Source: a bacterium (lineage in GTDB: Bacteria; Bacteroidota; Ignavibacteria; UBA10030). From it: a DNA stretch of 64,000 nt. The stretch lies in NCBI GenBank assembly GCA_043803945.1, contig JAZDJN010000054.1:96001-160000 (forward strand). The letters are read 5' to 3'. Each line of letters begins with the position of its first letter. Position 1 is the first letter of the stretch. The translations under genes and the position numbers were made by a program. Shown piece after piece: positions 10,886 through 29,568 of the stretch. The notes under the pieces were generated by a model that made no database searches, was not told the DNA's origin, and worked only from the letters and a program-made list of their open reading frames with translations.

Positions 10886-13705
10886 TCAATGCTGTAAATA
10901 CGATTGAATGATGGTTTCAACAGATTTGAGAGCATCATCGAGCTTGACGATATCTTTTCCGCCTGCTGTTGCCAGATGAGCTCTGCCGCCTCCACCGCCG
11001 CCGATGAGCTTTGCGACACTTCCAACAATTTTCCCGGCTTCGAGTTTGTTCTTTTTAATAATATCATCGGTCACGACACAAACGAGGGATACCTTACCAT
11101 CGATGATGGAGGCAAGAAGTCCGACACCGGAACCCAGTTTTGTCCTCAAGTTATCGCCAAGCGATTTCATTTCATCTGCCGAACCGGCTTCAACGAGTGC
11201 GCTGATGACCTTGATCCCTGCGACGAAGCCTGCCGACTGGATGAGCGCATCGATGTTTCCGGAGAGCGATTTTAAACGATGGTGAGCGAGTTCTTTATCG
11301 AGAGACCTTTTCTTCTCGCTCAGGTCAATAATGAGGCTTTCAATCTGTACCGCCCGACTCTCAATCGATTGGAAGAGTAAACCAAGTGTCTGGTCGATGC
11401 CGCCAATTGAAGTGGTTTGCTTGAGCTGATGGAGATTCTTTCCTATGAGATCTACTGAATCGGCAATTCGTTTTGCTGCATTGGAATCGCTCTGTGCCAG
11501 CTCATTGGAGAGATGAAGGATCTCCTCCAATTGAGTGAAGGCGTATTCAATGCGCTCGGATGCATTCTGAGATTGCAGCTTCAGGAGCTCCGTGGCATAA
11601 TCTCCTGTCACCGCTTCAACACGACGAACGCCGCTGGCAATGCTTCCTTCCGATTTGAATTTGAAGTACCCGATGTCACCCGTTGAACGGACATGCGTAC
11701 CGCCGCAGAACTCAAGCGTGTAATTTCCAAATTGGACAACATTGACAAAATCGCCGTATTTATCGCCGAAGAACATCAGCGCACCCATTTTCTTTGCTTC
11801 CTCAAACGACACATTGCGATGATGGCTCAGCTTGAGGTCTTCGCGAATCTTCTCGTTCACCATTTCTTCAATGGCTTTCAGTTCCTCCTCGGTGACTTTG
11901 GCGAAGTGAGTATAATCGAAGCGTAGATAATCGGGGGCAACCAAGGATCCTGATTGATGGACGTGAGTGCCGAGTAATTTTCGTAATGCCGCATGAAGAA
12001 GGTGAGTGGCCGAGTGATTTCGCATAATGGCAGAACGGCGCTGCTGATTGACGGCTGCAGTAACCTTATCACCAGCGTGAACGGGGGCCGCTTCCGCAAG
12101 GATGTGGACGTGGAGAGGCCCAATCTTTTGAGTGTCATGAACATTGAACTCCTGCTGGCCGAAGAGTATCATTCCCTGATCGCCCACCTGGCCGCCCGAT
12201 TCACCGTAGAAGGGAGTCGAATCGAGAACCAGAAGATGGCGCTCTCCTTTCAGTACCGTCGCCTGCGTCGTCAGCGATTCATATCCGATAAAGTGAGTCT
12301 GGTCGTCAGGAATGGTTCTGATAAATTCCTGAAGAGTCTCCCTTCCCGGTACATAGATCGTCAGCGATGATTCATCGGCAGAATCGGCTTTTCCCTCTGC
12401 TGAACGAGAACGCTCCCGCTGCTGCTTCATAAGCCTCTCAAAGCCGGATTCATCAACCTCTAGTCCTCGTTCCCGGGCGAGTAATGCGGTGAGATCGGCT
12501 GGAAATCCAAACGTATCATACAACCTGAACAGATCTTCACCCGGTACTTTGTTCAATCCGTTTGTTGTTACGTTCTTGACGACATCCTCAAAAATATCCA
12601 ATCCTCTATCCAGGGTTGCATTAAAACTTTCCTCTTCACCCTTTACAACTTTTTGAATATGATTCTGTTTCTCAACGATTTCCGGGAAAACGCTTCCCAT
12701 GGTTTGGACGAGTGTTGGTACAAGTTTGTAGATGAAGGGTTCACGGAGTTCAAGTGTCCGGCCAAAGCGTGCAGCACGCCTCAAGAGCCTTCGTAATACA
12801 TAACCGCGGCCATCGTTTGAAGGAATCGCTCCATCTCCAATAGCGAATGTCAGTGTACGTATGTGGTCGGCGATGACCCGCATAGCGATATCAACGTCGA
12901 GGTCGAGTTTGCCGGTGTATTCCTTTCCGCTTAACCTCGAAATTTCATTGATGAGCGGCGAGAAGACATCGGTATCATAATTTGAACTGTGCTCTTGCAG
13001 TACGGAACAGATACGCTCGAATCCCATCCCGGTGTCGACATGCTTCGCAGGGAGAGGAGTTAGTGTTCCATTTGCATCCCGATTGTACTGGATAAAGACA
13101 AGATTCCAGATTTCCATGACCTCAGCGACGCCGGCATTCACCATAGACGCCGTTGCAGTACCACTTGGTGTTCTGTCGATGTGTATTTCCGAACATGGGC
13201 CGCACGGACCGGTCTCGCCCATTTCCCAGAAATTATCCTTCTCAGCAAAGCGCAGAATATGGCTGTGGTTGATATCGGTGACAGTTTTCCAATATTCTTC
13301 AGCTTCCTCATCGTTGTTATAGACAGTTGCCCAGAGCCGGTTTTTGGGCAGCTTCCACACATTCGTCAAGAGGTCCCATGCCCACTCAATAGCTTCTTTC
13401 TTGTAGTAATCGCCAAAGGACCAGTTACCGAGCATCTCAAAAAATGTATGATGATAGGTATCCCGTCCAACCTCTTCAAGATCGTTGTGTTTACCGCTGA
13501 CGCGAATACACTTTTGTGTGTTTGCTGCACGCGTGTAATTGCGTTTGCCGGCTCCGAGGAAAACGTCCTTGAATTGATTCATCCCTGCGTTCGTGAAAAG
13601 GAGCGTCGGATCGTCATAAGGAACCACGGGAGAGCTTGGAACAATCGCATGGCTATGGTTTTCAAAAAATTTTAGAAAGCTATTCCGAATTTCTGCTGAA
13701 GTCAT
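10886..13705 (-). CDS. alaS: Alanine--tRNA ligase
   Basis: DPTLLFTNAGMNQFK, HHTFFEMLGNWSFGDY, HSATH editing motif, CGGTH, GGGGGG C-Ala domain. Confidence 0.98.
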   Translation of the reverse strand: MTSAEIRNSFLKFFENHSHAIVPSSPVVPYDDPTLLFTNAGMNQFKDVFLGAGKRNYTRAANTQKCIRVSGKHNDLEEVGRDTYHHTFFEMLGNWSFGDYYKKEAIEWAWDLLTNVWKLPKNRLWATVYNNDEEAEEYWKTVTDINHSHILRFAEKDNFWEMGETGPCGPCSEIHIDRTPSGTATASMVNAGVAEVMEIWNLVFIQYNRDANGTLTPLPAKHVDTGMGFERICSVLQEHSSNYDTDVFSPLINEISRLSGKEYTGKLDLDVDIAMRVIADHIRTLTFAIGDGAIPSNDGRGYVLRRLLRRAARFGRTLELREPFIYKLVPTLVQTMGSVFPEIVEKQNHIQKVVKGEEESFNATLDRGLDIFEDVVKNVTTNGLNKVPGEDLFRLYDTFGFPADLTALLARERGLEVDESGFERLMKQQRERSRSAEGKADSADESSLTIYVPGRETLQEFIRTIPDDQTHFIGYESLTTQATVLKGERHLLVLDSTPFYGESGGQVGDQGMILFGQQEFNVHDTQKIGPLHVHILAEAAPVHAGDKVTAAVNQQRRSAIMRNHSATHLLHAALRKLLGTHVHQSGSLVAPDYLRFDYTHFAKVTEEELKAIEEMVNEKIREDLKLSHHRNVSFEEAKKMGALMFFGDKYGDFVNVVQFGNYTLEFCGGTHVRSTGDIGYFKFKSEGSIASGVRRVEAVTGDYATELLKLQSQNASERIEYAFTQLEEILHLSNELAQSDSNAAKRIADSVDLIGKNLHQLKQTTSIGGIDQTLGLLFQSIESRAVQIESLIIDLSEKKRSLDKELAHHRLKSLSGNIDALIQSAGFVAGIKVISALVEAGSADEMKSLGDNLRTKLGSGVGLLASIIDGKVSLVCVVTDDIIKKNKLEAGKIVGSVAKLIGGGGGGRAHLATAGGKDIVKLDDALKSVETIIQSYLQH

Positions 13706-13788
13706 AGAAACAGTGTGGTTTCAGAGTGGTTTGTATTAGTATCTCAAGTTACGCAAAACAAAAAATGAGACTCTTTGAAAGAAAACCT

Positions 13789-13934
13789 GGCCGCCAAGTG
13801 CGCCAAGAGCTTTATTGTTTCAATGTTTTTATAAGGATCTGAATCTATCACATTTTAATCTTGGCGTTTTGCCTGCCTGCTGCAGGCAGGGCGTTCTTGC
13901 CCGCCTGTGCGCCGCTTGCGGCGGGCAGGGCGGC
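13789..13934. mobile_element. 9-nt-periodic hairpin element carrying two micro-insertions (13872-13890 and 13900-13929)
   Basis: Left arm gccgccaagtgcgccaag; right arm cttggcgttttg[cctgcctgctgcaggcagg]gcgttcttg[cccgcctgtgcgccgcttgcggcgggcagg]gcggc. Confidence 0.7.
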
Positions 13935-13982
13935 AAATCTTTCTCGTTTCCTGGTCTTACTCAGTTCCATGCGTAACATAAG

Positions 13983-14261
13983 TTAGTATTCAATTTGTGT
14001 ATGAAGAGCAATCTCTTCAAGAACCGATGAAACTTTCAGGCATTCATCCATTGGCCCGTCAAAGATGACTGCTTTTCCATTCCTGTGTACTTCCCATGTT
14101 AAGGCTTCTGCGGTCGGTGAATCGCAGCGGATGGCTTTCATGATCTGATGAATCACCTCTTCAAAGGTGTGTATTTCGTCATTATAGAGCAGGACCTTAG
14201 CCGGTTCCTGAGTGAGAACATTACTCTCTTTTTCCTGCTCAAATTGTGTTTGTTGATCCAT
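13983..14261 (-). CDS. clpS: ATP-dependent Clp protease adaptor ClpS
   Basis: KVLLYNDEIHTFEEVI...EVHRNGKAVI motifs. Confidence 0.9.
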   Translation of the reverse strand: MDQQTQFEQEKESNVLTQEPAKVLLYNDEIHTFEEVIHQIMKAIRCDSPTAEALTWEVHRNGKAVIFDGPMDECLKVSSVLEEIALHTQIEY

Positions 14262-14292
14262 AAGTCGAGGTAATCCGAATTATAGTTACTAA

Positions 14293-14451
14293 GCCACGAA
14301 GGCACAAAGACACGAAGAGAAAACAAAATGGAGTTTACAAATATCTCGATGTGTCGATCGGGAAATAATGGAAAAACAATCTCCAAAATAATTCGTGCCT
14401 TTCCTGCCCGCATAAAGTGGTCCCAGATGGCAGGCGGGGAGACTCGGTGGC
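14293..14451. mobile_element. 9-nt-periodic hairpin element with a micro-insertion at 14403-14438
   Basis: gccacgaaggcacaaagacacgaag ... ttcgtgccttt[cctgcccgc...ggcaggcggg]gagactcggtggc. Confidence 0.65.
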
Positions 14452-14602
14452 AAAATCATTTTGCTAAAACTTTTTCCTTTTCCATATTAAAAATACTAAA
14501 AAAACGACTGCCTTTCAACAAACGAGTTAAGAGAACTGGCCCAGAAGGGGAGAGAGTGCATCGTAAAGGAAGGGCCGCAATGAATACAGGAGTTTCGAAT
14601 AT

Positions 14603-14636
14603 AAAAGAAAAGGCATCTCTTCGTCGAGATGCCTTT
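14603..14636 (-). terminator. Intrinsic terminator downstream of icd
   Basis: aaaggcatctc-N6-gagatgccttt stem with a U-rich tail on the minus strand. Confidence 0.75.
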
Positions 14637-14657
14637 AAAATTGTGAATAGAATACGA

Positions 14658-15905
14658 TCACATTTGCGCGATGATAGCGTCGCCGAACTCAGAACACTTT
14701 ACCTCTTTTGCACCCTCCATTAATCGTGCGAGGTCGTAGGTGACAGTCTTTGCCTGGATTGCTTTTTCCAATCCCTTGAGGATAAGGTCAGCCGATTCTG
14801 TCCAACCCATATAGCGCAGCATCATCTCTCCCGAGAGAATAACGGAACCGGGATTCACTTTATCCAGGTTCGCATATTTAGGAGCAGTTCCGTGAGTGGC
14901 TTCAAAGACAGCATAGCCGTTTTCGTAGTTGATATTGCCGCCGGGGGCAATGCCAATTCCCCCAACCTGTGCGGCAAGGGCATCGGAGATATAGTCGCCG
15001 TTCAAATTGAGTGTGGCGATCACATCATATTCGGCAGGGCGGGTCAGGATCTGCTGCAGGAACGCATCTGCAATTACATCTTTTATGACCATTCCATTCG
15101 GTAATCTTACCCAGGGGCCGTCATCGATGAGCGTTCCGCCGAATTCTTTCTGAGCAAGTTCATATCCCCAATCCCGAAATCCTCCTTCTGTGAACTTCAT
15201 GATATTTCCCTTGTGCACGAGCGTCACAGACTTCCGATTGTTGTCGAGTGCGTACTGGATTGCAGCGCGGACAAGTCGTTTTGTTCCTTCGATCGAAACC
15301 GGTTTAATCCCGATGCTGGATGATTCCGGAAATCGTATCTTCTTTACATTCATCTCGCTTTGAAGCCATGCAATCACTTTTTGTGCTTCCGGTGTTCCTG
15401 CTTTCCATTCTATGCCGGCATAAATGTCTTCTGTGTTTTCACGGAAGATAACCATATTAACCAGCTCTGGTTTCTTCACGGGAGAGGGGACCCCGGGGAA
15501 ATATTGAACGGGTCGCAAACAGACGTAAAGATCAAGCATTTGCCGGAGTGTGACGTTAATGGAGCGGATTCCCCCGCCAACTGGCGTCGTCAACGGTCCT
15601 TTAATCGCGACGACATGATCTTTGATTGCATGTAGAGTATCATCATGCAGCCAGGTATTGGGTCCATAAACCACATTTGCTTTTTCTCCTGCATACACTT
15701 CGAACCAGACGATCTTTCTTTTTCCATCATAGGTCTTGGCCACAGCAGCATCCATAACACGCTGAGATGCCCGCCAAATGTCGGGACCAGTCCCATCACC
15801 TTCAATAAATGGTATGATCGGGTTGTCCGGTACCAGAAGCTTTCCGTTTTGAGAGGTGATTCTCGTTCCTTCAGATGGAGGAGTTATTTTGATATATGTG
15901 CTCAT
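14658..15905 (-). CDS. icd: Isocitrate dehydrogenase (dimeric, E. coli-type, probably NADP-dependent)
   Basis: [33 protein letters not shown] and [11 protein letters not shown] motifs. Confidence 0.97.
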
Positions 15906-16491: not shown

Positions 16492-16630
16492 GCCACCAAG
16501 GCACGAAGTCACTAGGAAAATCATATAATTCAAAAAAAACTTATCTTTCTTTGTGCCTTAGAGACTTTTCAACCAGAGGCTGATGCGCCCGCCTGAACGA
16601 CGTAGTCGGGCAGGCCTATGGTGCAGTGGC
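16492..16630. mobile_element. Hairpin element with a doubly nested insertion (~16569-16625, containing 16588-16614)
   Basis: gccaccaaggcacgaagtcactag ... ctttgtgccttagagacttt[tcaaccagaggctgatgcg[cccgcctgaacgacgtagtcgggcagg]cctatggtgca]gtggc. Confidence 0.65.
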
Positions 16631-29358: not shown

Positions 29359-29388
29359 AAAGCCCCGGGAAGTTCTTCCGGGGCTTTT
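29359..29388 (+). terminator. Intrinsic terminator, probably bidirectional
   Basis: aaagccccggga...tccggggctttt. Confidence 0.75.
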
Positions 29389-29424
29389 ATTCTTTATTGG
29401 GTCTAATACCCCGACGCTTGCGTC

Positions 29425-29568
29425 GTCATTCCGGCCCGCCTGCCGGCGAGGCAGGCGAAAGCTGGAATCTAGAAACTGGATGCCAGCCTGCCTGCCAACC
29501 TGTCCGCCGGAGCTTTGCGTAGGCGGAAGTGCCTGGCACGCAGGCAGGTAAAGACATTCGGGTGTGAC
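29425..29568. mobile_element. REP-like hairpin doublet carrying nested micro-insertions
   Basis: gtcattccgg[cccgcctgccggcgaggcagg]cgaaagctggaatctag-aaa-ctggatgccag[cctgcctgccaa[cctgtccgccggagctttgcgtaggcgga]agtgcctggcacgcaggcagg]taaagacattcgggtgtgac. Confidence 0.7.

Follow-up and report, generated by a model that had tools for sequence, protein, structure and literature searches.

A family of very small, seemingly mobile hairpin elements in the intergenic DNA of an Ignavibacteria genome

This study focused on an intergenic region rich in palindromes in the genome of a bacterium of the class Ignavibacteria (Bacteroidota, UBA10030; GenBank assembly GCA_043803945.1). The whole stretch analysed, here called the window, comprises 64,000 nucleotides of contig JAZDJN010000054.1 (positions 96,001 to 160,000 of the forward strand), and its features are listed in Table 1. 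The region lies between clpS and alaS, both on the minus strand and separated in the window by 277 bp. The two genes were adjacent at all 11 of the relatives' loci examined, with a gap of 3-61 bp at 9 of the 11. A repeat with the properties of a MITE (100-300 bp of non-coding DNA, terminal inverted repeats and several copies) is found in the gap, and abuts clpS without any spacer. Across the genome, paired ends of this host repeat were found 15 times in inward and 3 times in outward orientation. No copy was present in the 30 relatives searched and it is therefore an insertion into the clpS-alaS spacer. In two relatives, the same spacer held a gene pair for a ParE toxin and a RelB-like antitoxin, as identified by Pfam (1000-1478 of locus L024 in genome G013, and 1987-2444 of L028 in G029), and small mobile cassettes seem to settle in it repeatedly. 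The best matches of the AlaRS protein, among the 80 listed, were to metagenome-assembled genomes (MAGs) of many labels at 57-76% identity, and the closest of those listed were labelled Bacteroidia, Bacteroidota, Ignavibacteria, Melioribacteraceae or Chlorobiota/Chlorobiaceae.

Table 1. Coordinates and states of the features discussed in the text (window positions unless a contig is named; the genome under study is G000)
Feature	Position or copies	Strand	Remarks
alaS (alanyl-tRNA synthetase), downstream gene	10886..13705	-	Pfam tRNA-synt_2c (E 4e-212), tRNA_SAD and DHHA1
MITE-like host repeat, about 240-250 bp	13748..13985	.	at least 10 paralogous copies by blastn, aligned
Inverted ends of host repeat	13748-13755; 13970-13977		GTTACGCA; TGCGTAAC; part of a longer imperfect inverted repeat
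Left arm of host hairpin	13790..13807	+	both insertion sites empty in the window copy
AT-rich central loop of host repeat	13808..13859	+	aligned in most copies, missing in C16
Right arm of host hairpin	13860..13934	+	holds both inserts
Symmetric micro-element, 19 bp	13872..13890	.	termini CCTGCCTG...CAGGCAGG
Asymmetric micro-element, 30 bp	13900..13929	+	termini CCCGCCTG...CGGGCAGG
Conserved tail of host repeat	13978-13985		overlaps clpS stop codon (13983-13985)
clpS, upstream gene of the interrupted pair	13983..14261	-	Pfam ClpS (E 1.6e-16)
Asymmetric member, 36 bp	14403..14438	-	in the spacer upstream of clpS
Asymmetric member, 27 bp	16588..16614	+	identical 27-mer in G040 (another genus)
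Member of 21 bp	29435..29455	+	exactly empty paralogous site on contig C99
Composite of 62 bp	29487..29548	+	symmetric element with further hairpins nested inside
Symmetric form, genome-wide			CCTGCCTG...CAGGCAGG; 54-55 matches
Asymmetric form, genome-wide, both orientations			CCCGCCTG...CGGGCAGG; 58-60 matches
Right arm, both sites empty	C1, C42
Right arm, only 30-mer present	C21, C46, C87, C16
Right arm, both inserts present	C54 (the window), C5
Right arm, variant of the 19-mer, second site taken by a 20-bp hairpin of another kind	C58
Right arm, first site filled by a composite, second empty	C95
RAYT-like Y1 genes of G000, at least 10	C66:7339-7950, C56:3273-3749, C62:8207-8857, C18:83031-83702, C16:24951-25352, C65:26953-27516, C62:20005-20595, C85:25011-25574, C73:39804-40445, C72:16424-17035

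The right arm of the host hairpin carries two small inserts, and the letters at 13860-13934 read exactly as transcribed in a first-pass annotation of the sequence. The description given there of the arm and its inserts was borne out in other respects as well: the 19-mer and the 30-mer have a CC(T/C)GCC start and a GGCAGG end in common, their self-complementary cores differ, and no target duplication lies beside either of them. The 19-mer is a perfect palindrome about a single central T. The inner bases of the 30-mer are different and only partly self-complementary, and the element can be read as a hairpin, CCCGCC..GGCGGG, with a CAGG tag on its 3' side. The same annotation held that the right arm, once freed of its inserts, is the periodic inverse of the left. 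The periodic kinship stands, but the insert-free right arm has three GGCG units to the two of the left arm, and thus resembles the inverse of the left arm in its periodicity without reproducing it exactly. The insert-bearing stretch folds at -70.2 kcal/mol on the plus strand (z -3.4 against shuffles) and at -62.5 kcal/mol on the minus strand (z -2.6). An Rfam scan of window positions 13000-15000, at E values of up to 1, returned three chance-level matches and none at the gathering score, and a T-run of the kind typical of terminators was absent 3' of both hairpins on the transcribed strand.

Occupancy of the insertion sites was read from an alignment of the paralogous host-repeat copies of the same genome. 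Alleles with empty sites, as expected if the inserts are mobile, were found among these copies, and both sites were empty in two of them. The 19-mer was missing at exactly its window site in C21, C46, C87, C1 and C42, while the 30-mer was missing at its own site in C1 and C42, and in C58 that place was taken by a 20-bp relative of the 21-mer type. The left arm had a 36-mer in C5, C21 and C87 and a 25-mer in C5, C21, C46 and C1, at sites that mirror the insertion sites of the right arm. Identical 30-mers occurred in four copies, with one near copy, all within the host-repeat family of the window. Distances and a tree were calculated from the 162 host columns that seven full copies have in common. 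C5, with both inserts, and C1, with neither, are sisters (UFBoot 90) that differ in 5 of these columns, whereas C5 and C54, both insert-bearing, differ in 15. The filled and empty states thus do not track the genealogy of the host copies. As judged from sequence comparison, the pattern points to one of three histories, namely exact loss in recent times, gain more than once at the same sites, or conversion over a short tract, and the C5/C1 contrast could be explained by a short tract of gene conversion. Since both C5 and C54 have the two inserts, the pair in the window was probably inherited with its host copy and not inserted in place.

Both inserts are part of a larger set of elements of 18-40 bp, with termini 5'-CCYGCCYG...CRGGCRGG-3' and variable cores, that are mostly intergenic and lack target duplications. 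A genome-wide motif search, as had been proposed, gave 332 inward pairs of CC[CT]GCC and GGC[AG]GG spanning 12-39 bp, far beyond chance, as three arrangements of the words that do not form hairpins gave 68, 43 and 71. Exact termini of eight bases were matched 130 times at 122 non-overlapping loci, in a symmetric and an asymmetric form. One mismatch allowed, a further 52 and 69 matches appeared, against 2 and 0 in controls with reversed termini. One reading of the asymmetric form is that six base pairs, CCCGCC/GGCGGG, make up the stem, to which four bases, CWGG (CAGG, or CTGG in the 25-mer), are added as a tag. Termini that bear a mismatch outnumber the perfectly complementary pair by 60 to 8, and because of this the preference points to copying from a common source, not to selection for pairing alone. 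Long open frames make up 87% of the genome, yet 96 of the 122 loci lie outside them. The other 26 elements lie wholly within open frames of at least 150 codons, which are candidate coding regions; in-frame hairpin inserts are familiar from Rickettsia and from some REPs.

Elements of 36 and 37 bases have ten-base termini in common and a weak central GGWTYC, and a mean core identity of 0.40. The idea that cores were captured from other genomic DNA was not supported, as a search of the genome with 18 cores gave only 3 stray matches. In one five-copy host family, conservation of the termini was nothing special relative to that of the host. The 19-mer type, with any central base, occurred 22 times in the genome. 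Within the window, the first-pass count of six occurrences of the pattern agrees with the eight regular-expression matches at six places (13872, 13900, 14403, 16588, 29435 and 29487). Positions 29380-29560 form a dense cluster of nested GC-rich hairpins, which includes the 21-mer and the 62-bp composite.

The two 40-base flanks of each of 347 motif instances were searched separately in the genome; paralogous flanks existed for 151 of these, and a paralogous empty site, with the flanks abutting within 2 bases, for 30. When the boundaries were shifted by +7, -7, +12 or -12 bases, the numbers of empty sites were 1, 0, 0 and 0, and because of this difference the boundaries of the elements are real. 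Most of the 30 empty sites corresponded exactly to the joined flanks, the IS200/IS605-like combination of an exact empty site and no target duplication, and many of the junctions carried a one-base ambiguity (G or C). The cases were spread over at least 12 unrelated host repeats, and among them were 19-21-mers with exactly empty paralogous sites. One host site occurred in three states (empty, with a 25-mer, and with 36/37-mers), another was occupied by a 21-, 33- or 35-mer, and in two of the listed empty-site cases elements were nested within one another. Identical elements were also seen in unrelated flanks, a 20-mer in 7 contexts and one 19-mer in 3. Read as exact presence and absence between copies, these patterns suggest that the elements are mobile.

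The choice of target was less strict. The site CTTG^GCGG, in hosts with CTTGGCG-periodic arms, takes 21-, 30-, 33- and 36-mers in one orientation only, which supports the earlier view that the two inserts of the window occupy equivalent TTG^GCG sites. A fixed target word was absent from the flank tables of 50 non-redundant asymmetric elements, and CTTG^GCGG was confined to one host group. Three measures of context exceeded their controls, all of them rough since copies amplified along with their hosts are not independent: flanks paired across the element in at least 8 of 10 bases at 11 of 122 loci, compared with 2% of random non-coding sites and 3.7% of positions 40 bp away; an inverted copy of the site, no more than 220 bp off, was seen for 8 of 122 loci and for 0.3% of controls; and the joined flanks had a folding z below -2 in 38% of cases, but only 17% of random non-coding sites did so (p 7e-5). 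The preference for a hairpin context is real but moderate. Insertion at the apex of a host hairpin was rejected as a rule, with only 11 of 122 sites fitting it. The first-pass annotation had proposed extremely small mobile units that insert cleanly into pre-existing hairpins; the clean insertion is upheld by the empty sites (30 of 347, against 0-1 in controls), while the hairpins are an enriched target and not the rule, and the pair in the window, being present also in C5, probably does not exemplify insertion in place.

Related elements were found well beyond this genome. Among the 61 genomes of the family, 19 have the 19-mer type (17 of 33 genera), with no match in a backwards control. Asymmetric termini occurred in 52 of the 61 family genomes (29 of 33 genera), and the wider set of 201 class genomes had them in 52 (40 of 101 genera); when read backwards, they gave 2 and 3 matches in all, respectively. 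Counts of asymmetric termini ranged from 0 to 247 per genome. The richest genome met (G163, of the same class but another family) had its 247 matches in 3.9 Mb, and nearly all were 36-mers in which termini of ten bases enclose 16-base cores that differ greatly. Some elements were identical across genera, such as the 27-mer at 16588 and its counterpart in G040. Another genome, G043, had 24 copies of the 19-mer, mostly within one of its own host repeats.

A cognate enzyme was sought mainly among genes of the Y1_Tnp type, of which the genome has 12 matches. In an NCBIfam scan of four Y1 genes, three resembled REP-associated tyrosine transposases (RAYT) at 67-70 bits, below the 80-bit cut-off, and one scored above the cut-off for IS200. 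The RAYT-like genes of the genome are each flanked on both sides by their own, distinct family of palindromic repeats, and the genome therefore holds many separate REP-RAYT-like pairs. A classical inverted pair of the elements described here was not seen around the Y1 gene at any of the 12 loci. A related 25-mer lies near the RAYT-like gene of C72, directly oriented and lodged within the repeats that belong to that gene, and another is found 77 bp upstream of a Y1 gene in G017, so that the 25-mer adjoins RAYT-like genes in two genera. No such hairpin was present within about 1.3 kb of the IS200-type orthologues, inspected at six loci of this genome and five relatives, and the two Y1 genes of G043 were not flanked by 19-mers. 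The single 19-mer of G016 follows directly on the stop codon of a gene, and the RAYT gene beside it was rejected as a partner; the adjacency is probably coincidental, with the 19-mer lying at the end of the upstream gene and the RAYT gene having palindromes of its own. One IS200-type gene (G000:C31:47394-48920) stands singly between direct copies of a repeat of about 150 bp, which are not hairpin ends. The only IS110-family transposase gene of the genome, a frame of 453 codons (G000:C83:1860-3570), has a 20-bp symmetric element about 380 bp past its 3' end. No TnpB-type match was found in the genome.

Element numbers nonetheless varied with Y1 content. Genomes with a strong Y1 match had a median of 10 asymmetric elements (n=46) compared with 1 in those without (n=15), at a Mann-Whitney p of 0.002 that is overstated by the kinship of the genomes. 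Four genomes without a strong Y1 match carry 8-27 elements, at completeness values of 72-98%. The C72-type RAYT occurred in 23 of 61 genomes, some of them from genera devoid of the elements, and of the two specific Y1 types compared across these related genomes, neither tracks the elements. As for a co-occurring recombinase, Y1 genes and one IS110-family gene are present, but a cognate flanked by the elements was not found among the 12 Y1 loci, the G043 genes and the IS200-type orthologues inspected.

Taken as a whole, these observations are rather probably explained by a family of mobile hairpin micro-elements that is moved in trans by a Y1 enzyme of the IS200/RAYT type, and the label that suits the elements best is that of micro-transposons akin to REPs or SDRs. 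Movement as single-stranded hairpins by means of a Y1-type transposase is the mode proposed for REP sequences, and the HUH Y1 enzymes of IS200/IS605 elements cut and join hairpin DNA seamlessly. By analogy, the elements would be moved in trans as single-stranded hairpins, cut and rejoined without scars by an HUH Y1 transposase of this kind, which is probably the machinery and is at present the candidate for it. Comparison of the copies shows them entering and leaving DNA at exact boundaries, with the target neither duplicated nor damaged, and the site would be chosen by local structure and context more than by a fixed word. They often lodge in other hairpin-capable repeats, building mosaics by nesting, and in the window a MITE-like repeat of about 245 bp, with both elements probably already aboard, landed between clpS and alaS.

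It is unlikely, in our estimate, that the elements are mobile by machinery other than a Y1/RAYT enzyme. The agent could then be a recombinase or nuclease-ligase that has escaped recognition, or a route by way of RNA or oligonucleotides, and it would be conserved throughout the class. Such a system would resemble the cyanobacterial small dispersed repeats, for which we know of no enzyme. It would account for the lack of classical RAYT-REP adjacency at the loci inspected, for the lack of a fixed target word, and for an orientation relative to local GC skew of 24 to 15 (p 0.2, with 21 unclear in this draft assembly), and it is in keeping with elements in genomes that have no strong Y1 match and Y1 genes in genera that have no elements. 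Yet no alternative candidate was found, there is one IS110-family gene and no TnpB-type match, element number rises with the presence of Y1 genes, and seamless cut-and-join of hairpin DNA is an established activity of HUH Y1 enzymes. A bolder proposal, which we hold tentatively as a possibility, is that hairpins of 18-40 bases without a transposase of their own insert and excise seamlessly at structured DNA throughout the class by a mechanism other than that of REP-RAYT, the fixed termini of 8-10 bases and free cores reflecting recognition by a conserved host-encoded or novel enzyme. If true, they would rank among the smallest mobile DNA described, and the range of 0 to 247 copies per genome would make the enzyme findable by phylogenetic profiling.

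Transposition is dispensed with altogether in two other explanations. The hairpins could be functional motifs (a protein-binding site or an RNA stem-loop) under selection, and gained or lost mainly through recombination and gene conversion between repeats. Termini conserved across the class while cores vary (mean identity 0.40, with the weak central GGWTYC), the position of G016's single 19-mer right after a stop codon, and the C5/C1 contrast, which fits a short conversion tract, would all agree with this. Conversion, however, only reshuffles existing combinations, and can neither place the same element in unrelated flanks nor put different elements into one site; an Rfam match (window 13000-15000) and a terminator-type T-run after the two hairpins on the transcribed strand are also lacking, and function and mobility are not mutually exclusive, so that we consider this explanation distinctly improbable. 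Very improbable is the suggestion that slippage or template switching at quasi-palindromes makes and deletes the hairpins in place and that nothing moves. Hairpins do promote slippage across their base, and the one-base ambiguity of the junctions (G or C) could serve as microhomology, but local copying cannot explain why more than 120 loci of this genome, and 52 of 201 genomes of the class, have identical termini of 8-10 bases, nor why identical 19-36-mers stand in unrelated flanks. It also leaves the preference for mismatch-bearing termini (60 against 8) without explanation, and the cores are not derived from neighbouring or other DNA of the genome (3 stray matches from 18 cores). As the origin of the elements, slippage is close to refuted, while it could be the source of some losses.

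Movement by a Y1 enzyme thus remains the favoured reading, and the elements are, by their boundaries, empty sites and wide distribution, a real family of very small, seemingly mobile elements. This suggests how intergenic palindrome mosaics are built, with tiny hairpins nesting into larger repeats, which then spread. Nesting and spread would have stretched the spacer of the clpS-alaS operon from a few tens of bases to its present length, and the elements may change the stability or coupling of transcripts such as clpS-alaS. Elements of this type also confound the assembly and annotation of intergenic regions. They would represent a second case of very small mobile DNA, phylogenetically far from the small dispersed repeats of cyanobacteria, the mechanism of which has been open since 2008. 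Natural contrasts for an enzyme hunt are available in sister repeat copies with and without elements, and in related genomes with 0 to 247 copies.

Literature searches with the terminal words gave only unrelated primer-type matches among those listed, and searches for REP, RAYT or MITE in Ignavibacteria gave nothing on this lineage among the matches listed. Elements of the IS200/IS605 type integrate and excise seamlessly without target duplication, their hairpin ends being recognised by an HUH Y1 enzyme, and they insert 3' of a fixed word of 4-5 bases and have separate left and right end hairpins. The elements described here are likewise seamless and free of target duplication, with a role for Y1 that is proposed by analogy. 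They differ in that one hairpin makes up the whole element and in that the target word varies, and their orientation against GC skew (24 to 15, p 0.2, 21 unclear in the draft assembly) is to be set beside that group.

The definition of REPs calls for a GT(A/G)G head and for a RAYT gene with REPs in inverted orientation on its two sides (Nunvar 2010, PMC2817692), and REP and REPIN sequences have also been treated together with RAYT transposases (Bertels and Rainey 2011, PMC3116915). They resemble the present elements in being GC-rich imperfect palindromes of 20-40 bases with a short tag at one end, in their extragenic position, in their tens to hundreds of copies (here 122 loci, of 18-40 bp) and their mosaics, in the many Y1 genes of the genome, and in the persistence of the system across related lineages. 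The tag is a different one, CCYG/CWGG here with the GT(A/G)G head absent, and at none of the Y1 loci inspected does an inverted pair of elements enclose the gene, as it does in REP-RAYT systems. REPINs, so described, are doublets, whereas these are single hairpins, cleanly present or absent, and the variability of their cores far exceeds that of REPIN populations. Certain REP families lie regularly within larger or small palindromes, in the sections of Di Nocera et al. (2013, PMC3733652) concerned with GTAG-15 of A. variabilis, GTAG-23 of T. roseum and CGTC-1 of H. neapolitanus, and the same sections tell of genomes with many tyrosine transposases, each with repeats of its own. Those REPs, as presented there, carry GTAG or CGTC tags, which the elements here do not, and they differ from the present case, where empty and filled copies of the target coexist in one genome for many hosts and several different elements use one site.

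The other comparison is with the cyanobacterial repeats. The small dispersed repeats SDR4-6 of Nostocaceae, of about 21-27 nt, are said to have been described by Elhai and colleagues in 2008 and are reportedly mobile. SDR5 has 21 nt and is tied to HIP1, according to the passages on that repeat (PMC5861425, PMC13756078), and the first of these states that a look at HIP1-rich cyanobacteria turned up no SDR-like repeats outside Nostocaceae. Like the elements described here, the SDRs, as characterised in those passages, are very small dispersed repeats held to be mobile, linked to palindromic sites and without a known enzyme. The phylum is a different one, the AlaRS matches here being to MAGs labelled Bacteroidota, Ignavibacteria or Melioribacteraceae, and HIP1, to which the passages tie SDR5, is not enriched in this genome (107 copies in 5.5 Mb). 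Termini and length range also set the present elements apart from SDR4-6, going by the descriptions in those passages. In our filing, the elements belong in neither the REP nor the SDR family, but work like REPs or SDRs, and the small dispersed repeats of Nostocaceae are the nearest to them in kind.
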